Part shown: positions 9,744-46,282 of the stretch, one piece after another
Position numbering within the stretch: the stretch's first letter is position 1
Layout: each line of letters begins with the position of its first letter
From: an uncultured Alphaproteobacteria bacterium
Lineage (GTDB): Bacteria > Pseudomonadota > Alphaproteobacteria > Rhizobiales > Methyloligellaceae
DNA: 64,000 nt
NCBI GenBank assembly: GCA_963820115.1
Contig: CAWFYP010000001.1
Location: 698,897 to 762,896, forward strand
Direction of reading: 5' to 3'
Translations under genes and position numbers: made by a program
Notes under the pieces: model-generated
The model's database searches: none
Told to the model about the DNA's origin: nothing
Seen by the model: only the letters and a program-made list of their open reading frames with translations

Positions 9744-10065
9744 CGATCGACCCAAGCGCGTACAAGATGCGGGCCCAGCTCCGGGCGCCTTTGGTAAAGC
9801 TCGCGAGGTTGTACTTCTCGTCGGGGGAATGAATGCGGTCATCGTCGAGGGCAAAGCCGATGAGCAGCGCTTGCATGCCGAGCCGCGAGCGGAACAATTC
9901 GACGATGGGGATGGACGCACCGCAGCCGATCATCATTGGCGCTTTGTCCCATTCCCGCTCGAGCGCCTCGGCCGCGGCCATGAAGGGCGGCGGTGGTTCA
10001 CACCCATCGCTCAAGGCTCGAAGCATAACGTCGCGAGGAACGGCGCGTGGCGACGCCGGCGACAT
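9724..10065 (-). pseudogene. remnant of an M20-family dipeptidase/peptidase (C-terminal ~100 codons only)
   Basis: [12 protein letters not shown]...[32 protein letters not shown] matches the extreme C-terminus of ~450-aa M20 peptidases. No upstream catalytic part exists, because cspA ends 45 nt upstream. Confidence 0.6.
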
Positions 10066-22853: not shown

Positions 22854-25396
22854 CAGATCCTCCTCCCTATCCGCCGCGGGGAGGCATAATCGCGGCGGTG
22901 GTAACGCCACAAGAGAAGCGTCACCGCGCTTAGCATGGCGAGTAGCAGTGCGAACATCGCGATCTGCCGGATGAAATCGTCAGGTGTGACCACGGGCGGC
23001 ACGGCCAGTTGAGGCGAGGCCCCTTCCGGACCGGTGTTCTCCGGCGCGGGTGTCGCGGGCGATTGCGCGTCCGCCTCGCCGCCATCGAAGGCGGTCACGC
23101 CAGGGTCGGCGGCAGGCGCATCGGCCGGCCCGCCAGTCGCATCCATTTCTGGCCCCGGTACCGCCATGGTCTCCGCCGCGACGCCGCCCTCGGACGGCAC
23201 CGCCGAAGGCGCGTAGGACGGCGCGGGAGCGGGTGCGGGCAACGCCGCAAACGCGCCGCCGCTCAGGGACCGCATGCCGCCTATGCGGGACGCTTTGGCC
23301 ATGTAACCGTAACTTCCGCCCGACCCATAGGAGGCCGCCGCCTGTTGACCCTGGGCCGGGGCGCCAAAGACTTTGTCATATCGCCAGCCGTCGGGCAGGT
23401 TGACCGGCAGGTCGGTCGAGGTGACAGCTTGGCCATCGGGCCGCGACCTGGTCGTGTCAATGGCGACGAGGCTCGTCTCGCTCGAGACCAAATGGTGCTT
23501 GAGTGCCATAGCTTCGATTTCCTTGGCGATTTCCTCGGAATTGCCGTCGGCGTAAAGCTTGCCTTCCAGCGCGGCAATCTTGTTGCGGGCCCAGAGCTTG
23601 CCGACGCCCGCGCCCTCGACGGCGCCGGAGAGCTTGAACGCGGCCTGCCACGGCTTGCCGTCGAAGGTGCCGGATAGGCGCAGCGCGCCGTCGGGAGAGG
23701 CGGCCTTGGCCGACACCAATATGGGTTCCCCGGCATAGAGATCGGGCAACGGGTCGGGCCAAGCTTCGACAGCGCCCGCGCCCTGCCACTCGGCCTTGAG
23801 GCCGACCAGCACCGGCTTTTCGAGCTTGGCGAAGAGGGCGGTCATGCGCTCCAGCACCTGCGCTTCGGAGCCGATCTCGGTGAAGGTGCCGCGGCCGAGC
23901 TCGGCCGCACGGCGCATGAAATAAGAGTTGGGCGCGGAGCCGATGCCGACGGTGAACAGGCGCGAGCGGCCGCGATGATCGGCGATCTCGGTGAACAGTT
24001 CGGCTTCGTTGCCGACCGCGCCGTCGGTGAGAAACACGATCTGACGCACATGGCTCGTATCGGCGGGTGTGCCATCTTTGAGCGCGGCTTTGAGCGCGGG
24101 CAGCATCTCGGTGCCGCCATCGGCGTCGAGCCGCGAAACGAAATGCTTGGCGATGGCGAGATTTTCTGAGGTTGTGGCGGCGGGCTCGTCGAACACCGTG
24201 TCCATGGTGTCGTCGAAGCGGATGACGTTGAATTTGTCGCCCGGGCGCAGGCGGTTCAAGGCGAAGAGGAGGCTTTCCTTGGCCTGGGGCATCGAGGTGC
24301 CGGCCATGGAGCCGGAATTGTCGATCACGAAGATGATCTCGCGCGGGAGCGGCGCCTGCGCGCTGTCAAGGCTCGGCGGAGTGACCATGGCCAGAAGATA
24401 ATGCTCGCCGGCCACGGTCTCGTGGAACAGCGAGGCTTGCGGGGCGGCGGCCGCCTTCGGCTTCCACACGAGTTCGAAGTCCTTGTTGGCGGCCACCGAT
24501 CCGTCGGCGAGCGCCAATGTGGCAGTCTTGTCGCCGGTCCGCTTCAGCGCGATCTGGTGGTAGGAACTCGTGACGTCGCCAAGGTCGAAGCCCGCATTGA
24601 GCGTGACCTGCAGGGTGACCGGATTGATTTTGGCGAATTTGTTGGGATCGAGCACGGGCGGGCTGATGCGGTCGCGGTCGGGCACGGGATCGCCCACGGG
24701 CGCGTGCGGGCGCCCATAGTCGACGAGGTCGACCTCTTTCGAGTTCGGATTATAGCGGGGCGCGACCACGAGAGGGAAGCGCAGGGAATAGATACCCCCG
24801 TCTTGTTTCACCGTTTCCTGATATTCAATGCGGATGACGATGGCCTCATGGGGGCCGATATTGGCCACCGAATTGGTGAAGATGTTCGGCCGCTCCTGTT
24901 CGACGAGGCTCGCCTTCTGGCCGGCGTCCCTGGCCTCGTCATAGAGCTTGCGCGCTTCCTCTCGGCCTTTGATCTCGCCTTCGATGGCCCGGCTGCCAAT
25001 CTCCATGTGCAGCGCGTCGACCGCGGATTGCTCCGGCAGGGGGAAAACATAAACCCCTTCGAGCCAACGATCACTCGGGTTTGCGAAACGCTGGGTGACG
25101 ATGGCGCGGGCGATGGTACCGGTGACGGTAATGTTGACGTCGGTAGCGAGGCGCGGGGCCTCGACGAATTGACCTTCCTTGCCGCTCTTAAGCAGGAGGG
25201 CGCCCGTGTTCATATCGCCGGGGGTCACGAAATTGACGGGGGTGATGGCGCTGCCGCCTGCCTCGGTCTGAGGCTGGAGGGGGTCGGCACTGGCCGATCG
25301 TGAAGGTGCCGCGCCAATGAAGCCAAGGATGAGGAAAAGCACCGCGCAATTGAACGCCAACTCTCTCAAGCAGAGAGCTTGTGGCCGCGTCAGCAT
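22853..25396 (-). CDS. VIT + von Willebrand factor A domain protein (marine proteobacterial sortase target protein family)
   Basis: 847 aa with a signal peptide, an N-terminal VIT-like region, vWA MIDAS FVIDNSGSMAG, and a C-terminal hydrophobic segment plus basic tail (FALLLAMLSAVTLLLWRYHRRDY). A sortase-like gene is coupled downstream. Confidence 0.8.
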   Translation of the reverse strand: MLTRPQALCLRELAFNCAVLFLILGFIGAAPSRSASADPLQPQTEAGGSAITPVNFVTPGDMNTGALLLKSGKEGQFVEAPRLATDVNITVTGTIARAIVTQRFANPSDRWLEGVYVFPLPEQSAVDALHMEIGSRAIEGEIKGREEARKLYDEARDAGQKASLVEQERPNIFTNSVANIGPHEAIVIRIEYQETVKQDGGIYSLRFPLVVAPRYNPNSKEVDLVDYGRPHAPVGDPVPDRDRISPPVLDPNKFAKINPVTLQVTLNAGFDLGDVTSSYHQIALKRTGDKTATLALADGSVAANKDFELVWKPKAAAAPQASLFHETVAGEHYLLAMVTPPSLDSAQAPLPREIIFVIDNSGSMAGTSMPQAKESLLFALNRLRPGDKFNVIRFDDTMDTVFDEPAATTSENLAIAKHFVSRLDADGGTEMLPALKAALKDGTPADTSHVRQIVFLTDGAVGNEAELFTEIADHRGRSRLFTVGIGSAPNSYFMRRAAELGRGTFTEIGSEAQVLERMTALFAKLEKPVLVGLKAEWQGAGAVEAWPDPLPDLYAGEPILVSAKAASPDGALRLSGTFDGKPWQAAFKLSGAVEGAGVGKLWARNKIAALEGKLYADGNSEEIAKEIEAMALKHHLVSSETSLVAIDTTRSRPDGQAVTSTDLPVNLPDGWRYDKVFGAPAQGQQAAASYGSGGSYGYMAKASRIGGMRSLSGGAFAALPAPAPAPSYAPSAVPSEGGVAAETMAVPGPEMDATGGPADAPAADPGVTAFDGGEADAQSPATPAPENTGPEGASPQLAVPPVVTPDDFIRQIAMFALLLAMLSAVTLLLWRYHRRDYASPRRIGRRI

Positions 25397-28353: not shown

Positions 28354-31300
28354 ATGACCGGTAGACCAATTTTCCACGATCCGACGGGCAGGCGCGGCCG
28401 CGTCCTGGGGCGGCTTGCCTGGGCGGCAGGCACGCTCAGCGCGCTCGTCACCGTCCTTTTCATCGCCACGCTGATGGTGGCGCATCGGCCGGGAGTGGAG
28501 CGTGCCGATCCCGGGGCGCCGAGGCCGTCGATCCGTTGTGCCTGGGCGCCCACCTGCGCGACGGCGCATGCGTTGAACACGACGCCGGCCGCCGATCCCG
28601 AGCTGCTCAAGCAGGCAAACAAGCTCGCCGCCGAATTGCGGGAGAGGGAGAGAGGTTTGCGTGGCCAACGCCCGCAAGCGGAAGTGATCGACCGGCGCCC
28701 GTTGCCGGCATCGCTTGCCTCTCCCCACGACCGCTCCTTGAGCATCGGCTTTTATGTGAACTGGGACGACAACAGCTACCCGGCCTTGAAGCGGGCGCTG
28801 CCGCATCTCGATTGGCTCGTTCCGGGTTGGCTCAGCCTTGAAGGGCCGGACATGGCGGTGAAGGCCGATGTCGACGCCCGCGTACTGAACTACATCCAGG
28901 CCACCAAGCCTAACCTCCCGATCCTGCCCATGATCCAGAACGCGGTGGAGGGCAAATGGGACGGCGCGGGTCTCGCCAAGCTCTTGGCCGATCCCACCCA
29001 GCGCGCCACACGCGTCGCGGAGATCGTTGCTTTTCTCGACAAATACAAGTTCCAGGGTCTCACGGTCGACTTCGAGGAGGTGCCGGCGGCGGCGCAGAAG
29101 AATCTGCAGCTGTTCCTCACGGAAATGGCCGCTGCCTTCGCGCCGCACCAATACGTCATCGCGCTGGCGGTGCCCTTCGACGACGACGCGTGGCCCTATG
29201 CGACCTATGCCCACATCGTCGATTTCATGATGCTCATGGGTTACGACCAGCATTGGGAGGAGGGTGAGCCCGGAAGCATCGCCGGTCAAAGCTGGTTCGA
29301 GGACATTCTCGACAAGCGCATGAAGACGCTCGACCCCGAGCGCACCATCATCGCCATCGGCAGCTATGGCTACGACTGGGTGAAGGGCAAGAACGCCGAC
29401 GACCTCACCTTCGAGGAGGCGGTGTTGTCGGCACGCGATTCGGAAGCCGACATCGACTTCGATCCGGAGACCAACAACCCTCACTTCTCGTTTGTCGAGG
29501 ACAATGGCCAGCGCCACGACGTTTGGTTCCTGGACGGCGTCACCGCCTTCAACGAGGTCCATGCCGCCGACGTGTACCGCCTGGCCGGCTACGCCCTGTG
29601 GCGGCTTGGTTCCGAGGACCCATCGATCTGGTCGGTGCTTGGGCGTCCCTATGATGCGGCCGTGCCCGACGCCTTGGGGGAGATCGGGACGAGCGAGGAC
29701 ATCGATTTCGAGGGGGAGGGGGAGATCCTGCGCGTGGCCGAGCGCCCGGCGACGGGCGCGCGGGTGATGGAGATCGACAAGGACACGGGCGACGTCGTCG
29801 ACCAGACCTACACCAAGATTCCCACGCCCTATGTGATCGAGCGGACCGGGGCCAAGCCAGGCGAGCTCGCGCTCACCTTCGACGATGGCCCGGACCCCGA
29901 TTGGACGCCGAAGATCCTCGACATTCTGAAGGACAAGGGTGTCAAGGCGAGTTTCTTCATCATCGGCAACAACGCGCAAGCCTATCCCGACCTCGTGCAA
30001 CGCATCCTCGCCGAAGGTCACGATGTGGGGAACCACACTTTCACCCACCCCAATCTCGGGGAGATGCCGAACGCGCTCGTCACTCTCGAGATCAACGCCA
30101 CGCAGCGACTGTTCGAGGCTTTGACCGGGCGATCCATGCGGCTGTTCCGGGCGCCCTATTTCGGCGACGCCGAGCCGACCACGGGCGATGAGATCGCGCC
30201 GATCGAGGCCGCCCAGTCCATGGGCTATTTCTCGGTCGGGCTGCATGTCGACCCGGACGATTGGCAGCGGCCTCCGGTCGACACCATCGTCCAACGGGCC
30301 GTGGCCCAGGTCATGGATCCAAACCCAGATATCCGGGGCCATATCATCCTGCTGCACGATTCCGGCGGCGACCGCTCACGCACCGTCGCGGCGCTGCCGA
30401 AGCTCATCGATGCGCTGCGGGCCAAGGGCTATAGCTTCGTGCCGGTGTCGGAGCTTGCCGGGCTCACGCGCGATCAGGCGATGCCGCCCGTTCCCCTCAC
30501 CTCGCTCGGGAGGCTCGTCGGTCTGCCGGTGTTCATGACGCTTGGCTGGCTCGGCCATCTGCTCACCAGTCTGTTCATCGTTGCCATCTGGCTCGGCGTC
30601 GCGCGGCTCCTGTTCCTGTGCGTCATCGCCTTGCGCAACCGCCGGGCGGAGGCCAAGCGCGTGCCGCCCCCCTTGCCGGAGCCCGCGCCGCTGCAGTCGG
30701 TGCTGATCCCCGCCTTCAATGAGGCCAAGGTCATCGTGCGCTCGATCGGTCACATCCTGGCGAGCGACTATCCCAATCTCGAAATCATCGTCATCGACGA
30801 CGGCTCGACCGACGGCACGGCGGACCGCGTGCGGGAGCATTTTGCCGACGATCCGCGCGTCACGCTTCTGACCGTGCCCAACGGCGGCAAGGCGAGGGCG
30901 CTCAATTGCGGCTTGCGCCAGGCGCGAGGCGGCGTGGTCGTGGCGCTCGACGCCGACACGCATTTCCAGTCCGATTCCATCACCAAGCTCGTGCGCTGGT
31001 TCGCGGACCCGGACGTCGGCGCGGTGGCCGGGAACGCCAAGGTGGGCAACCGCATCAACGTCATCACTCGCTGGCAGGCGCTGGAATATGTGACGAGCCA
31101 GAATCTGGAGCGGCGTGAGCTCGCCGCCCTTGGCTGCATCACCGTCGTGCCGGGGGCCATCGGCGCCTGGCGGCGCGAGGCGTTGGAAAAGCTTGGCGGG
31201 TTCCCCGTCGACACGCTGGCCGAGGACCAAGACCTTACTATTTCCATGCTCAAGGCCGGCTACAAGGTGCTGTACGAACTCTTCTGCCATCGCCTGGACC

Positions 31301-31804
31301 GAGGCGCCCGACACGGTGAGGGGCCTCGTCAAGCAACGCTTCCGCTGGGCCTTCGGCACGCTGCAATGTTTGTGGAAGCATCGCGCGGTGACGCTGCGGC
31401 CGCGTTACGGCACGCTCGGGCTGGTGGCCTTGCCGCAGACCTGGCTGTTCCAGTTCCTGTTCACCCTACTTGCACCGCTCGTCGATCTCGCGCTGTTCTG
31501 GCGGCTGGCCATCTCGACCTACGACGTGCTGCAACATCCCGATCAGTTCGACAGCGATGCCCTGCGCAAGGTGCTCGTCTATTACCTCGTCTTCCTGGTC
31601 GTCGACCTTGGCGGCGCGGCGATCGCGCTCGCCATGGAGCACAAGGAGAAATGGGGTCTCGTGCCCTGGCTCGTGCTGCAGCGTTTCGGCTACCGCCAGC
31701 TGATGTATTACGTGGTGATTAAGGCGATGTTCGCCGCCGCGCTTGGGCCGCTGGTCGGCTGGGGCAAACTGGAGCGCAAATCCACGGTCGGGGCGACCGC
31801 GTAG
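28354..31804 (+). pseudogene. fused GH18-like / polysaccharide deacetylase (CE4) / family-2 glycosyltransferase (PgaC/IcaA-like synthase), frameshifted near 31277
   Basis: ORF 28354..31722 carries a TM segment, GH18-like GLTVDFEE...MGYDQHW, CE4 FDDGPDPDWTP...HDVGNHTFTHP and GT2 IPAFNE...VIDDGSTDGT...ALDADT...LAEDQDLT. The QRFRWAFG motif and C-terminal TM segments continue in ORF 31115..31804, in the +1 frame. Confidence 0.85.
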
Positions 31805-38354: not shown

Positions 38355-39233
38355 TTAGCCTTCGGTGAGCGCGGTGCGGACCGCAGCGAGATCGCGCAGC
38401 GCGGCCTCGCCGAGCTTCGGGAATTTGGGATCGATTGCCTCCAATTGCTCAACCATTGCCGCGGCGACGATGAGGCGGGTGAACCATTTGTGATCGGCGG
38501 GCACCACATACCAGGGCGCCTCCGGTGTCGCGGTCGCGCGGATCATATCGTCATAGGCAGCCATGAATTGATCCCACAGCTTGCGCTCGCCCACGTCGCC
38601 GGCATTGAACTTCCACTGCTTGGCCGGATCGTCGATGCGGGCGAGCAGTCGCTTCTTTTGCTCTTTCTTTGAGACATGGAGGAAGAGCTTGATCGGCACG
38701 ATGCCATTGCGGGCGAGATGTCGCTCGAAGTCGTTGATGTCTTCGAAGCGCTCCTGCCAGATATTCTTGGTGATGAGTTTGGGCGGCAGGCCCTGGCGCT
38801 CGAGCAGCTCCTTGTGCACGCGCACAACCAGCACCTCCTCGTAATAGGAGCGGTTGAAGATACCGATATGCCCGCGCCGCGGCAGCGCCACCGCCGCACG
38901 CCAGAGGAAATCGTGGTCGAGCTCGAGCTCGCTCGGCGCCTTGAAGGAATGTACGTCGCAGCCTTGCGGATTGACACCCGACATCACGTGCTTGATGACG
39001 CCGTCCTTGCCTGCCGCGTCGAGTGCCTGGAGGATGACGAGGATCGCCCAAGTGTGGTCGGCATAGAGCCGCTCCTGCAGGGCGGCGAGGCGGTTGACCC
39101 CTTCAGCGAGAATCGCCTTGGCCTCGGCCTTCTTGATGTCGATGCCGCAGGTATCGGATGGATCGATCTTGGCTAGCTCAAACTCGCTGCCTTTGCGAAT
39201 GCGATAGCGCTTGAGAATGTCGGATATGAGCAT
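38355..39233 (-). CDS. polyphosphate kinase 2 (PPK2) family protein
   Basis: ILVILQALDAAGKDGVIKHVMSGVNPQG (Walker A-like), FNRSYYEEVLVVRVH, lid region, 292 aa. Confidence 0.9.
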   Translation of the reverse strand: MLISDILKRYRIRKGSEFELAKIDPSDTCGIDIKKAEAKAILAEGVNRLAALQERLYADHTWAILVILQALDAAGKDGVIKHVMSGVNPQGCDVHSFKAPSELELDHDFLWRAAVALPRRGHIGIFNRSYYEEVLVVRVHKELLERQGLPPKLITKNIWQERFEDINDFERHLARNGIVPIKLFLHVSKKEQKKRLLARIDDPAKQWKFNAGDVGERKLWDQFMAAYDDMIRATATPEAPWYVVPADHKWFTRLIVAAAMVEQLEAIDPKFPKLGEAALRDLAAVRTALTEG

Positions 39234-39335
39234 CGTACCGCCTTGGGATTGGCTGGGCGGGGCTTAGGCTAACCCATTGCGCCAGACCTTGGCGACGCTG
39301 AACTGAAGGAAGCGACGCCCTTTTCCGATCCATGC

Positions 39336-40058
39336 TCAGAAGCGGGTGGTCAGATCGGTCAGCCAGGCGGGGGAGGCGGCGACGAGCTTCACCTCCACGG
39401 TCTTGTCGAGGCCGCTGACGATGAAGAGGCCGGTCGCGATCAATACCGCACCGAGCGTCATCTTGGCGCCGGTTCCTGCCGCGTGCAGTCGGCTGCGCCA
39501 GTGCATCAAGACCTCCCGCGACAGCAGCCCCAAGACAAGAAGGGGGAGCGCGGCGCCCATGCCGAAGACGAGCATGGTCACGGCGACGTGGCTGAGGTCC
39601 TTGCCTTGGGCGGCGAGAACGGAAGCGGCGCCGAGGGTGGGGCCGACGCAGGGGCTCCACACTGCGCCGAGTAGAAGGCCGACCAGGAATTGACCCGTGA
39701 CGCCCGGCAGGGTTGCGCCGCCCCATTGCTGTTCCATCCAATTGCTCACCGGGCCCGCGGCCACCGCGACCCGCTGCTGCAGGGACGGCATCACCAGCAC
39801 GATGCCGATGGCGATCAGCACGATGGCGGCGGCGGAGCGGAATAGGCCGGCGTCAAGTCCGATGGAGAAGCCGATGGTGGCGATGAACAATCCGACGGTG
39901 ACGAAGGAGAGGGCGACGCCGGCGGCGAGCGCCACGGGTCCCCACCGATACGCCGATGCCGCCGAGCCGAAGACGATGGGAAGGAGCGGCAACACGCAAG
40001 GCGAGAGCACCGACAGCAGGCCGGCGAGAAAGGCAAAGCTGAGGACGCCCCATCCCAT
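39336..40058 (-). CDS. cytochrome c biogenesis CcdA / DsbD-family thiol:disulfide transmembrane protein
   Basis: LLSVLSPCVLPLLPIVFG and WSPCVGPTLG (the two membrane-embedded Cys motifs). Six hydrophobic segments. Starts 9 nt after the thioredoxin stop. Confidence 0.88.
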   Translation of the reverse strand: MGWGVLSFAFLAGLLSVLSPCVLPLLPIVFGSAASAYRWGPVALAAGVALSFVTVGLFIATIGFSIGLDAGLFRSAAAIVLIAIGIVLVMPSLQQRVAVAAGPVSNWMEQQWGGATLPGVTGQFLVGLLLGAVWSPCVGPTLGAASVLAAQGKDLSHVAVTMLVFGMGAALPLLVLGLLSREVLMHWRSRLHAAGTGAKMTLGAVLIATGLFIVSGLDKTVEVKLVAASPAWLTDLTTRF

Positions 40059-40067
40059 GGCGCGCGC

Positions 40068-40469
40068 TTACAGCGCCCTTTTCACCAACTCGCTGATCGC
40101 GCCGGCATTGGTGCTGCCGACGGAGCGGCCTTCCTCGGTGGCGCCCTTGAATACGATCAAGGTGCTCTGCTGTTGCACGTTCAGCGCCCGAAGGGCCGGC
40201 TTCTGGGTATCGAAATCCACATCGAAGATGGTGAGGTCCTTGTATTCCGGCTGCGCAGCCAAAGATTGGATGATGGGCTTTTGTGCGCGGCAGGTAGGGC
40301 ACCAGGGCGCGGAAACGTCAACAAGGATGGATTTCCCCGCGGCCTGAGCCGCGGCAAAGGCCGATTCCTCGAACGGCATACGCTCGGCGGCAAATGATGT
40401 GGCCGTCCAACAGGCGGCGGCCAAGATGAGCAGGCAGGCGAGAAGCAGTCTCTTGGGCGTCGCGGACAT
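40068..40469 (-). CDS. periplasmic thioredoxin family protein (WCPTC)
   Basis: ATG at 40469 gives signal peptide MSATPKRLLLACLLILAAACWTATSFA. Active site VDVSAPWCPTCRAQ. Confidence 0.88.
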   Translation of the reverse strand: MSATPKRLLLACLLILAAACWTATSFAAERMPFEESAFAAAQAAGKSILVDVSAPWCPTCRAQKPIIQSLAAQPEYKDLTIFDVDFDTQKPALRALNVQQQSTLIVFKGATEEGRSVGSTNAGAISELVKRAL

Positions 40470-40559
40470 GATTGATCTTCTCCGGGGTTGAATGAGACGG
40501 TTGGGACGGAGGCGAGACCCGGGAGCGGCCACCGCGCCCGAGCCTCGTTCCGAAGACGA

Positions 40560-40817
40560 TCAGCCGTGCGTTAGCGTACCGCCCTTGGCGACGCATGACG
40601 ATTTGCCGAGAAGCACGAAGCCCCTGCCCTTGCAGGCGTTCTGGCCCTTACAAGCATTGGCCAGCGACTTGCAGCTGCCATGGCCCTTGCAGGCATTGAC
40701 CCCGAAGCACTTGACCATGTACGCGGCGCTGGCCGGCGCTATCGGGGCCGCCATGCCGACCACCAACAAGGCGGCCGCGGTGGCAAGAGTCACTCCCGAT
40801 CTTGCAATGAGTTTCAT
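40560..40817 (-). CDS. secreted 6-Cys peptide with three NACKG repeats (DUF2282/BufA bufferin-precursor-like)
   Basis: Start MKLIARS at 40817 (GAGGGG 10 nt upstream; an alternative ATG at 40826). Signal peptide ...APASA. Mature part AYMVKCFGVNACKGHGSCKSLANACKGQNACKGRGFVLLGKSSCVAKGGTLTHG. Confidence 0.7.
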   Translation of the reverse strand: MKLIARSGVTLATAAALLVVGMAAPIAPASAAYMVKCFGVNACKGHGSCKSLANACKGQNACKGRGFVLLGKSSCVAKGGTLTHG

Positions 40818-41098
40818 GTTTTGCATTCCCCTCGCTTCAGGTTGCGGTAAGTCCCTGAGACCAGTTCGCGCGCATTTCCGCAGCTTGCGGCGGAGCGCTA
40901 AAATGGTCTCGTCAGCAAACCATTCCTCCGCACGACACCACTAGCGGGCCGGGGACGAACCCTTTCCGGCAGCGGTGCAGCGATGGGTGCTGCGGGTGGA
41001 GCGACGCTAGCAGGGCCGGGGCCGGGTGCGGATTCACATTCGCTCACTTCACGGAGAGCGGCTGGTCACTGCGCATCACGGCTGCGCGAACAGACGGC

Positions 41099-42070
41099 TT
41101 ACTCCGCGGCCTCGGTCAGAGCATCGAGGCCGGCGAGATGGCGCTCGGCGTCGAGCGCGGCCATGCAGCCCATGCCCGCCGCCGTCACCGCCTGGCGATA
41201 GACGTCATCGGCCACGTCGCCGGCGGCAAACACGCCGGGCACGCTGGTCGCGGTCGAGCGGGGCGCGGTGAGAATGTAGCCCGAGGGCTTCATGTCGATC
41301 TGCCCCTTGAACAGCTGTGTCTGCGGCACATGGCCGATCGCGATGAACACGCCGTCGATGGGCAGGCTCGTGAACTCACTGGTGAGGGTGCTCTTAAGCT
41401 TCACCCCGGTCGCGGTGCGCGGATCCTCGTGGCCCGTGACCTCGGCCAACTCGGAATTCCACAGAACGTCGATCTTCGGATTGGCGAATAGGCGTTCCTG
41501 CAAGATCTTCTCCGCGCGCAAGGCGCCACGCCGATGCACCAGTATCACTTTCTCGGCGATGTTGGCGAGATAGAGCGCCTCCTCGACCGCGGTGTTGCCG
41601 CCGCCGATCACGATGACCTTCTTGCCGCGGAAGAAGAAGCCGTCGCAGGTGGCGCAGGCCGAGACGCCGTATCCCTTGAAGCGGTCTTCCGAGGGCAAGC
41701 CGAGCCAGCGCGCTTGGGCGCCCGTGGCGATGATGAGGGTGTCGGCGGTGTATTCGGTGCCGCTGTCGCCCTTGAGCCAGAAGGGTTGGCGCTTGAGGTC
41801 CACGGCGTCGATATGGTCGGCGACGATCTCGGTGCCGACATGCATGGCCTGAACGCGCATCTGATCCATGAGCCAGGGCCCCTGGATGATTTCGGCAAAG
41901 CCCGGGTAGTTCTCCACGTCGGTGGTGGTCGTCATCTGCCCGCCAGCCTCGATGCCTTCGATGAGGAGCGGCTTCAGCATGGCGCGGGCGGCATAGATGC
42001 CCGCCGTGTAACCGGCAGGACCGGAGCCGATGATAATGAGCTTGGAGTGACGGGATGCCTGAGAGGCCAT
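41099..42070 (-). CDS. trxB: thioredoxin-disulfide reductase
   Basis: [19 protein letters not shown] motif, redox-active CATCDG and NADPH motif [10 protein letters not shown]. 323 aa. Confidence 0.95.
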
Positions 42071-42230
42071 TGCAGCGGGCCTTTATCATGGGACAGGATG
42101 AGAAGAGGTAAGCGCGAAGGTGCGGTCGCGCAACTCACGCCCACGAGAGGGTGAATGAGGCTTGGGTTTTAAGGTGAAACACGCCTGGTCGCACGGCGAC
42201 CCCCGCTGGACACGCGCCAGGCCGAAAAGT

Positions 42231-42851
42231 CTAGTAGGCGTCGGCCATCTTCTTGAAGCGCGCCGAGATCTTGTGGCGCAAGGCGTGGAAGCCCCGGCGG
42301 CCCTCCGACACCATCCAGTTCATCTGGATCGAGCGGCGCACGCCCTCGAAGGGCTCATGGCCGTGCCAGGATCTCTCCGAGCGCCGGAATATGAGCAACG
42401 TGCCATCGTCTGGTGGCACCTGCTCGACATAGTCGGCGAGATCGCTTTCGCTGCGCAAGAGCCTAAGCTTACCGTGTTCGTGCGGCCACAATTCGTTGAG
42501 ATAGAGCAGCACGGTGATGATCTTGTCTTTGGAGTCGGTGTGGATCTTGCCGTCGGAGGCCCGGCAATAGCCGCGCAGCGAGTACATTTTCGGCTTGCCG
42601 GCCAGCGCTACGCCGAATTTTCCTTCGACCGCCCGCTCGAAATCCGGCCCGTCCATCTGGTCGATAACCGCCCGCAGCATCGGCGGCACCGTGATCGAAT
42701 CGAGGGGATAGGAGCCGCCCTTGAGGTCGGGATAGCTATCGATCACGCGGGAAAGGCTGGCGGCTTTGAGGAAGTTCGGGACCACGACATAGTCGAACGG
42801 GTCGCTTTTCAGCTTGGCGCTCTGCACGCGGTCGATATCTATATGCGTCAT
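42231..42851 (-). CDS. 2OG-Fe(II) oxygenase family protein
   Basis: HTD...H iron triad context (GKIHTDSKDK ... SWHGHEP). ATG at 42851 with a GAGGAG Shine-Dalgarno inside the 3' end of the upstream gene. Confidence 0.7.
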   Translation of the reverse strand: MTHIDIDRVQSAKLKSDPFDYVVVPNFLKAASLSRVIDSYPDLKGGSYPLDSITVPPMLRAVIDQMDGPDFERAVEGKFGVALAGKPKMYSLRGYCRASDGKIHTDSKDKIITVLLYLNELWPHEHGKLRLLRSESDLADYVEQVPPDDGTLLIFRRSERSWHGHEPFEGVRRSIQMNWMVSEGRRGFHALRHKISARFKKMADAY

Positions 42852-42869
42852 TGTCCCCACTCCTCGCCG

Positions 42870-45753: not shown

Positions 45754-46275
45754 ATGCGTCTGACACGATTATTCGCGGCGGCCTTAGCGGGTTTGGCCGC
45801 AATGACGGCGGGAGTTGAGCTCAGCTACGCTCAGCCCGTCTCTCCGCCAGGTGGGCAGCTCCGCTGCGACGTCGAGGGCGGCGTAAGCTTCTTCGTCGGA
45901 TCGAGCCGCCGGCTCGATTGCGTGTTCACGCCGACCGACAGGCCGCCGGAATTTTACAAAGGCAGGATCAACCGCGTGGGCGTCGATATCGGCTTCCAAT
46001 CCGCGGGCGTGATCTTGTGGGCGGTGCTATCGCCCGGACTGACCCTGGGGCCGGGGGCGCTCGAGGGCAATTATGTCGGCGCGTCGGCGGCGGTGGCGGC
46101 GGGCGTCGGCGCCGGCGCCAATGCGCTCGTGGGCGGCAACAAGGTCGTGCTCAACCCAGTCAGCGTGAGCGGCAATATCGGCATCAACGTCGCCGCGGGG
46201 ATTGCCGACATCGCCCTGACCTATGTGGTGGGTCCTCCGCCGACAATTCGCCAATATGTGCCGTTTGGCCGCTAG
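45754..46275 (+). CDS. DUF992 domain-containing secreted protein
   Basis: GGGAGGAAG Shine-Dalgarno, signal peptide, GQLRCDVEGGVSFFVGSSRRLDCVF...YKGRINRVGVDIG pattern. Confidence 0.75.
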   Translation: MRLTRLFAAALAGLAAMTAGVELSYAQPVSPPGGQLRCDVEGGVSFFVGSSRRLDCVFTPTDRPPEFYKGRINRVGVDIGFQSAGVILWAVLSPGLTLGPGALEGNYVGASAAVAAGVGAGANALVGGNKVVLNPVSVSGNIGINVAAGIADIALTYVVGPPPTIRQYVPFGR

Positions 46276-46282
46276 TTACAGG

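Follow-up and report, generated by a model that had tools for sequence, protein, structure and literature searches.

The 64-kb window analysed here, the whole stretch of DNA from an uncultured alphaproteobacterium, carries a gene for a small Cys-rich secreted peptide of the bufferin type, followed by genes for a periplasmic thioredoxin and a CcdA-type membrane protein; the association of this thioredoxin-CcdA (Trx-CcdA) pair with bufferin genes, in the window and elsewhere, is our subject. A first-pass annotation had recognized four consecutive minus-strand genes, the first being trxB, and all of the open reading frames and gaps that it gave are present. The genes and the regions between them are as follows (coordinates are those of the window, and features lie on the minus strand unless noted).

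41099-42070, minus strand: trxB, a housekeeping thioredoxin reductase (TIGR01292, 410 bits against a cut-off of 343), a neighbour outside the conserved module
40818-41098, minus strand: region of 281 nucleotides (nt) upstream of bufA2, the presumed promoter region
40560-40817, minus strand: bufA2, a Sec-exported six-Cys Buf2 bufferin precursor of 85 aa, with a mature part of about 53 aa
40470-40559, minus strand: bufA2-trx spacer of 90 nt, with a GGAGAAG ribosome-binding site ahead of the trx start
40068-40469, minus strand: trx, a periplasmic thioredoxin of 133 aa with a signal peptide or anchor and the active-site motif WCPTC (PF00085, 49.3 bits against 23.5)
39336-40058, minus strand: ccdA, a CcdA-type membrane thiol-disulfide electron conduit of 240 aa (PF02683, 48.4 bits against 27.1)

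The genes are thus separated by gaps of 281 nt (trxB-bufA2), 90 nt (bufA2-trx) and 9 nt (trx-ccdA). A simple promoter and terminator scan of positions 39100-42300 found no terminator-like site between bufA2, trx and ccdA and no sigma-70-like promoter; the one terminator-like match in this region lies within ccdA, and that count is within chance expectation.

First described in 2024, bufferins rank among the largest families of modified peptides of ribosomal origin. Four gene types have been published as their core, encoding the precursor, an MNIO enzyme (DUF692, BufB), a DUF2063 protein (BufC) and sometimes DoxX. In those bufferins that have been characterised, a structural disulfide joins the first Cys to the last, while the central Cys are made into copper-binding 5-thiooxazoles in the cytoplasm by the MNIO enzyme and its DUF2063 partner.

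Judged from its sequence, the window peptide is a true BufA2 (Buf2, Buf_6-12Cys) bufferin precursor and not a member of DUF2282/BufA1. Over residues 12-85 it matches the equivalog-level NCBIfam model NF050166.1 (BufA2 family periplasmic bufferin-type metallophore) with 83.5 bits against a cut-off of 60, while Pfam gives only a sub-threshold match to DUF7640. The first-pass annotation, which had likened the peptide to DUF2282/BufA precursors and proposed a profile hidden Markov model (HMM) search, was therefore right in calling it bufferin-like, the family being more precisely Buf2. We prefer the start at position 40817, which yields the 85-aa product, is preceded by a GAGGGG ribosome-binding site and agrees with a public copy (P0001) that is likewise 85 aa long; an alternative ATG at 40826 would give 88 aa. 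The N-terminus is basic and is followed by a hydrophobic segment (residues 11-23) and an ASA|AY-type cleavage site, as read from the sequence a predicted Sec signal, and the six Cys are at positions 37, 43, 49, 56, 62 and 75. A database search found 188 homologues, 44 of which were aligned; these share the motif C-x-G-x-N-x-C-K-G...C-x-G-x-x-x-C-K, and there is little or no variation in the six Cys or in the surrounding C-x-G-x-N-x-C-K-G / G-Q-N-A-C-K-G motifs, in contrast to a variable signal peptide. Such a pattern in the alignment indicates selection acting on the protein. The AlphaFold model, of moderate confidence (pLDDT 63), places Cys37 in a strand (34-38) and Cys75 in a short helix (72-77), a placement that fits the disulfide geometry published for bufferins (PMC11626156). 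A Foldseek search of the model against the PDB returned no match, and a profile search of PDB sequences with the peptide gave nothing meaningful.

No partner enzyme is encoded nearby. HMMs of MNIO and DUF2063, built from 59 and 58 bufferin loci, respectively, and run on all six-frame open reading frames, gave no match in any frame of the 64-kb window, in agreement with the first-pass annotation. That annotation took the lack of an adjoining MNIO gene to be unusual, but stand-alone Buf2 precursors have already been published as a sizeable fraction of all precursors (PMC12452194, Fig. 3 and Table 3). Of the 80 BufA2-anchored loci that we sampled (species-representative genomes, among the matches listed), 59 have bufA2-MNIO-DUF2063, and the remaining 21 have an orphan bufA2 within the examined flanks. 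The orphan status of the precursor is not remarkable in itself, and neither is the adjoining trxB. The published survey found no complete genome (0 of 864) that has a Buf2 precursor and lacks MNIO, and it leaves open whether stand-alone precursors get modified (PMC12452194). Because of the former figure, modification in trans is the likelier reading: MNIO and DUF2063 genes would most likely lie elsewhere in the genome, their products acting on the window peptide from there. Like the published stand-alone precursors (PMC12452194), the window bufA2 has no genetically associated MNIO gene; unlike them, it has a downstream Trx-CcdA pair that is conserved and recurs in full clusters. The comparison with the Buf2 locus of Caulobacter vibrioides (bufA2-bufB2-bufC2, CCNA_03001-02999; PMC11626156) is similar. 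The two precursors belong to the same curated family and share the Sec signal, the six conserved Cys and the predicted strand and helix for the first and last of these, whereas the window gene is without BufB or BufC in the 64 kb and is followed by a secreted thioredoxin and CcdA.

A second type of orphan bufA2 was observed in Steroidobacteraceae-like genomes (L018, L032, L033, L043 and L062, and also L013; at about locus position 10000), where an opposite-strand gene for an extracytoplasmic function (ECF) sigma factor and a DoxX gene lie directly upstream of bufA2; neither MNIO nor DUF2063 was found within the examined flanks of these loci.

The association of the peptide with the Trx/CcdA pair, which the first-pass annotation had proposed for this locus, holds well beyond it. 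The order bufA2-trx-ccdA recurs in L089 (peptide 76% and Trx 70% identical to those of the window) and in L090 (48% and 59%), and in both the flanks differ from those of the window, with no tblastn match to TrxB, the PPK2-family polyphosphate kinase or Elm1. Among the 80 BufA2-anchored loci listed, five (L023, L053, L055, L056 and L063) have an orthologous Trx-CcdA pair within 10 kb, and the orthologues next to bufferin clusters are 45-55% (Trx) and 46-59% (CcdA) identical to the window proteins. The chance expectation is at most about 0.4 of the 80 loci, a rough estimate that assumes a single-copy pair and a 20-kb span in a genome of about 4 Mb (about 0.5% per genome). In four of the five, the pair stands beside a complete Buf2 cluster: in Methylotenera (L053), Methylobacterium (L055), a Burkholderiales metagenome-assembled genome (MAG; L056) and a Pseudomonadota MAG (L063).

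The reverse sample consists of 77 Trx-anchored metagenome loci, among the matches listed, many of them on short contigs, and its family assignments were confirmed by Pfam (DUF2282, DoxX, NrsF, sigma-70 r2/r4, AhpC-TSA and MerR). CcdA directly follows Trx in essentially all 77. Bufferin parts (BufA1, BufA2, MNIO, DUF2063 or DoxX) lie within 10 kb in 10-11 of these listed loci and ECF sigma/NrsF genes in 13; in the 26 loci whose two flanks each reach 1.5 kb or more, the counts are about 6 and 8, respectively. One apparent BufA1, in L161, was discarded as a low-complexity Arg-rich open reading frame. Several of the arrangements are tight and co-directional: MNIO-DUF2063-DoxX-Trx-CcdA in L135, L154 and L163 (with BufA1 ahead in L154, the only one of the three in which the precursor was detected), sigma-NrsF-Trx-CcdA-BufA1-MNIO-DoxX in L103, Trx-CcdA-BufA1-MNIO-DUF2063-sigma-NrsF in L120, and Trx-CcdA-BufA2-MNIO-DUF2063 in L053. 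In L085, MNIO-BufA2 is divergent from Trx-CcdA. At 70% identity, about 10 separate Trx lineages have at least one bufferin-linked member among the matches listed. The recurrent linkage of this Trx-CcdA family with Buf1 and Buf2 clusters and with sigmaF/NrsF genes is thus well supported by gene neighbourhoods, as a real association that extends past the window locus. The BufD/DoxX protein of Buf1 clusters offers a parallel, as it too is a membrane protein of redox type that accompanies a bufferin cluster as an accessory, although of a protein family unrelated to Trx-CcdA. Trx-CcdA is not a substitute for DoxX, because both co-occur in L103, L135, L154 and L163.

Both members of the pair have the features of a reducing module. 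In the thioredoxin, a hydrophobic segment (residues 8-22) precedes the WCPTC motif (residues 56-60). The protein scores under the cut-off of every curated DsbE, TlpA, ResA and TrxA model (DsbE, 28.6 against 123 bits; TlpA, 27.7 against 230; ResA, 17 against 170). In CcdA there are six hydrophobic segments, and its only two Cys lie in helix 1 (Cys21) and helix 4 (Cys137); the protein matches the solved CcdA structures 5VKV (E = 9e-13) and 2N4X. In the CcdA/DsbD family, electrons flow from NADPH through TrxB, cytoplasmic thioredoxin and CcdA to a periplasmic thioredoxin. The window pair resembles the CcdA-ResA/CcsX, DsbD-DsbC/CcmG and ScsB-ScsC/TlpA-PprX systems in that the CcdA core has six helices and two Cys, its gene is paired with that of a secreted CxxC thioredoxin, and electrons would be imported from the cytoplasmic thioredoxin system. 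It differs from them in that its thioredoxin passes no DsbE, TlpA, ResA or StoA model and in that it is linked to bufferin and sigmaF/NrsF genes and not to ccm/ccs; furthermore, its CcdA does not have the periplasmic domains that DsbD and ScsB carry in addition. Among solved structures, the relative closest to the window thioredoxin is Trxlp of Edwardsiella piscicida (ETAE_2186; PDB 5ZPV and 5ZF2), which is also the only one that has been characterised; the match reaches 97 bits, and the mature domains are about 47% identical. Both have the signature VxFDTQK...QQSTLI, but Trxlp has WCPVC in place of WCPTC. Trxlp has been published as a secreted, host-targeted virulence effector that inhibits ASK1, and neither a CcdA partner nor a metal context is discussed (PMC6636751).

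The first-pass annotation had also counted trxB as a member of a dedicated four-gene unit, and this part of its proposal fell. The closest syntenic relatives, L082 and L084 (peptides 64-67% identical), keep the order asparaginase II, AsnC, Elm1, TrxB ... bufA2 ... 410-aa gene ... EF-G, but with trxB 2-5 kb from bufA2 and opposite-strand genes intervening. Because these relatives share the AsnC-Elm1-TrxB synteny and have trxB at such a distance, we place it outside the dedicated unit. A tblastn search with TrxB gave no match in L085-L090, including the roughly 600 bp upstream of bufA2 in L089. Adjacency of trxB and bufA2 is seen only in the window lineage, that is, in the window, in L001 (93% identical peptide) and in the MAG contig L023. 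On comparative grounds, trxB is the cell's general reductase and not a dedicated unit member, its position being one of chromosomal synteny. In the public assemblies of L001 and L023, frameshifts split trx, ccdA, trxB and PPK2; this looks like long-read assembly error, and the gene calls there are unreliable.

The explanation that best accounts for these observations, and that we consider probable although by no means certain, is that bufA2, trx and ccdA form a three-gene unit in which a bufferin precursor is combined with a periplasmic reducing module. The three genes are most likely co-transcribed, given the shared strand, the short gaps and the terminator scan. The bufA2 product would be exported by Sec to give a six-Cys periplasmic mini-protein of about 53 residues, modified, as suggested above, by MNIO and DUF2063 products acting in trans. 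Electrons would pass from NADPH through TrxB, cytoplasmic thioredoxin and CcdA (Cys21/Cys137) to the WCPTC motif of the secreted thioredoxin and from there to a periplasmic target, the adjoining trxB acting as the ordinary cellular reductase that supplies electrons wherever it is located. Copper catalyses thiol oxidation in the periplasm, and therefore the metal-binding capacity of the peptide would be preserved by a reductant close at hand. The substrate of Trx-CcdA may accordingly be the sulfur ligands of the bufferin, either thiooxazole thiolates, for which a labile S-S bond is possible, or any Cys without the modification, which the module would keep reduced and metal-binding under copper or oxidant stress. 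More broadly, the module might reduce copper-oxidised thiols in the same stress pathway.

Several observations weigh against this explanation. L082 and L084 carry an orphan bufA2 without any trx-ccdA, and because bufA2 stands alone there, the peptide does not need the pair nearby. The peptide-trx-ccdA neighbourhood, whose conservation the first-pass annotation proposed to check, is found in L089 and L090 and missing in the two syntenic relatives. The pair is also not exclusive to bufferin loci: about half of the well-flanked Trx-anchored loci are without bufferin or sigmaF/NrsF genes, and on plasmids it occurs beside a Met-rich secreted protein and an azurin-like gene (Mesorhizobium), a DUF1223 gene (Rhizobium), or ECF sigma and arsenosugar genes (Burkholderia glumae). 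The Trx query alignment of the reverse search was derived from bufferin-linked loci, which introduces some bias into its counts. Finally, a sigmaF-type motif (TGTAAC-N14-18-CGTA-like) is readable upstream of several other bufA2 genes but is absent from positions 40818-41098 upstream of the window bufA2, a further difference from the C. vibrioides Buf2 locus (PMC11626156), and it precedes only 1 of 72 Trx genes. Because it is absent upstream of the window bufA2 and of 71 of the 72 Trx genes, direct sigmaF control of the window locus is unsupported. The window has two matches to the motif, one inside a VIT-VWA gene (23302-23329, plus strand) and one in a convergent intergenic region (46255-46280, minus strand); as 6 of 100 shuffles reach two, these are compatible with chance.

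When positions 40818-41098 are aligned with relatives, conservation is patchy. Elsewhere, a conserved element, GAGCTTTGAACAGGAGTGAC ... GCTATAGCTCGC, was observed upstream of bufA2 in Methyloceanibacter-like loci, at about 134 nt in L015, L016, L028 and L040 and about 97 nt in L022, with a similar one in L085. It is distinct from the TGTAAC promoter of sigmaF type read at other bufA2 loci and may represent regulation through another site.

The main rival to the three-gene unit makes Trx-CcdA a reductase or isomerase arm that serves the envelope in general. Switched on by metal or oxidant stress, the pair would repair the wrong disulfides that copper catalyses in numerous periplasmic proteins, as DsbD-DsbC or ScsB-ScsC do in copper tolerance, and would lie near bufferin genes only through a shared stress response. 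The plausibility of this rival derives from the company that the pair keeps elsewhere. ECF sigma/NrsF genes adjoin it without bufferin genes as often as with them (L112, L117, L118, L150 and L151), its plasmid copies lie beside other metal or metalloid functions, and an AhpC/TSA-like gene follows ccdA in 11 loci. Its relative Trxlp is, moreover, among the three most upregulated genes of E. piscicida after macrophage infection (PMC6636751). A shared response is harder to reconcile with the loci in which the pair is inside a bufferin operon with abutting genes (L135, L154, L163 and L103), or with the bufA2-trx-ccdA order of L089 and L090, where no other stress genes are visible in the short flanks. 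We regard this alternative as a serious one, although on the whole unlikely.

According to the idea that the first-pass annotation put foremost, the peptide is never modified by MNIO and is instead a metallothionein-like, free-thiol buffer for metals or oxidants in the periplasm, kept reduced by its own Trx-CcdA. The reductase pair directly downstream of the peptide gene would suit such a role, as would the failure to find MNIO and DUF2063 in the 64 kb, and unmodified stand-alone precursors are allowed for by the published survey (PMC12452194). However, nothing of the BufA2 equivalog signature is missing from the peptide, down to the residues flanking each Cys; among its cluster-linked relatives, the closest (60% identity), from a Hyphomicrobium genome (L002), is a tandem precursor with MNIO alongside; the Trx-CcdA family also accompanies MNIO-bearing clusters; and MNIO is present in every one of the 864 complete genomes with a Buf2 precursor mentioned above. 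Taken with these points, the idea appears improbable.

We give still less weight to feedback on a sensor, in which the conserved Cys of NrsF, an anti-sigma factor, would be re-reduced by the secreted thioredoxin and sigmaF signalling thereby reset, the linkage with bufferins being secondary. Two Cys of NrsF, Cys131 and Cys181, are reportedly needed to hold sigmaF in check. ECF sigma-NrsF pairs adjoin Trx-CcdA in the 13 of 77 listed loci noted above, but the window yielded neither a sigma nor an NrsF gene, and many loci with bufferin genes and Trx-CcdA have no NrsF nearby (L053, L085, L089, L090 and L135), which makes this a very unlikely explanation. In the study by Kohler et al. (PMC3511200), C131S and C181S mutants of NrsF were made, and sigmaF-dependent gene expression was measured in them.

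Housekeeping cytochrome c maturation, with CcdA and the WCPTC thioredoxin as a CcmG/ResA-like apocytochrome-reducing pathway that is beside bufA2 by chance, is scarcely credible: CcdA is classically a cytochrome c biogenesis protein and WCPTC is also the active-site motif of Escherichia coli CcmG/DsbE, but the thioredoxin is far under the curated DsbE, TlpA and ResA cut-offs, no ccm/ccs genes are among the window genes scanned, the pair is absent at the same position in L082 and L084, the family is present on accessory plasmids, and chance would hardly account for its enrichment near genes for bufferins and sigmaF.

Other contexts of the pair were observed as well. On a plasmid of Mesorhizobium sp. 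INR15 (L165, NZ_CP045500; 5923-7451 and 9258-9755), the gene after trx-ccdA encodes a secreted, very Met-rich protein of 100 aa (MGMMKMMKGG...MMGDMMKM), small, periplasmic and probably copper-binding, with a gene of the plastocyanin/azurin family nearby. On a Burkholderia glumae plasmid (L167, NZ_CP100267; 5923-7912), an arsenosugar-biosynthesis cluster includes trx-ccdA followed by genes for an ECF sigma factor and an anti-sigma factor of the zf-HC2 type; a related trx gene is found in about 50 Burkholderia plasmids, with the gene order read in L167 only. The AhpC/TSA-like protein encoded directly after ccdA (e.g. in L102, L110, L112, L117, L118, L147, L149, L150 and L163) has a CPIC motif and no evident signal peptide, and it may be a cytoplasmic redox partner of the CcdA conduit.

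The remaining genes of the window are of less concern here. A PPK2-family polyphosphate kinase gene (38355-39233) starts 102 nt past ccdA on the same strand and is found only in the window lineage. A gene for a 2-oxoglutarate (2OG)-Fe(II) oxygenase (42231-42860, minus strand) lies between Elm1 and trxB; it too occurs only in this lineage (the window, L001 and L023) and is absent from the syntenic relatives L082 and L084. As a candidate peptide-modifying enzyme it was rejected, the match to the YhhC peptide oxygenase reaching 20.6 bits against a cut-off of 150 and the gene being restricted to the window lineage. On the plus strand, positions 28354-31722 encode a 1122-aa protein that fuses glycoside hydrolase family 18, polysaccharide deacetylase and family-2 glycosyltransferase domains, an unusual three-domain combination. 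Thirty further window genes scanned with Pfam have ordinary chromosomal functions (UvrB, UvrC, EF-G, methylmalonyl-CoA mutase and others).

The peptide family, its orphan precursors and CcdA with a secreted thioredoxin as a kind of module are already known; what appears to be new is the link between bufferins and Trx-CcdA. A connection of bufferins with thioredoxin, DsbD or CcdA was not found in the literature searched, which included the full text of two bufferin genomics papers and covered the subscription literature in part. Thioredoxin, DsbD and CcdA are not mentioned in the main text or the examined supplements of the published survey, according to which additional conserved genes occur in bufferin clusters only at extremely low proportions (PMC12452194).

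How bufferin sulfur ligands are maintained in the reduced state in an oxidising, copper-loaded periplasm is not addressed in the papers searched, and the Trx-CcdA module is a concrete candidate for this function, one that rests on the recurrence of an electron-import module with both bufferin types and with sigmaF/NrsF regulators. The export signals, CcdA partner and metal-stress neighbours of the thioredoxin family suggest that its native role, including that of Edwardsiella Trxlp, may be periplasmic. A bolder version of the three-gene unit, which we put forward tentatively and hold to be rather doubtful, is that Trx-CcdA is a dedicated recycling reductase for Buf1 and Buf2 bufferins. These would then be redox-cycled copper handlers whose thiooxazole sulfurs are re-reduced by cytoplasmic NADPH, and the minimal unit in such lineages would be precursor plus reductase, with the modifying enzyme distant or dispensable. 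If this is true, bufferins would not be passive chelators.

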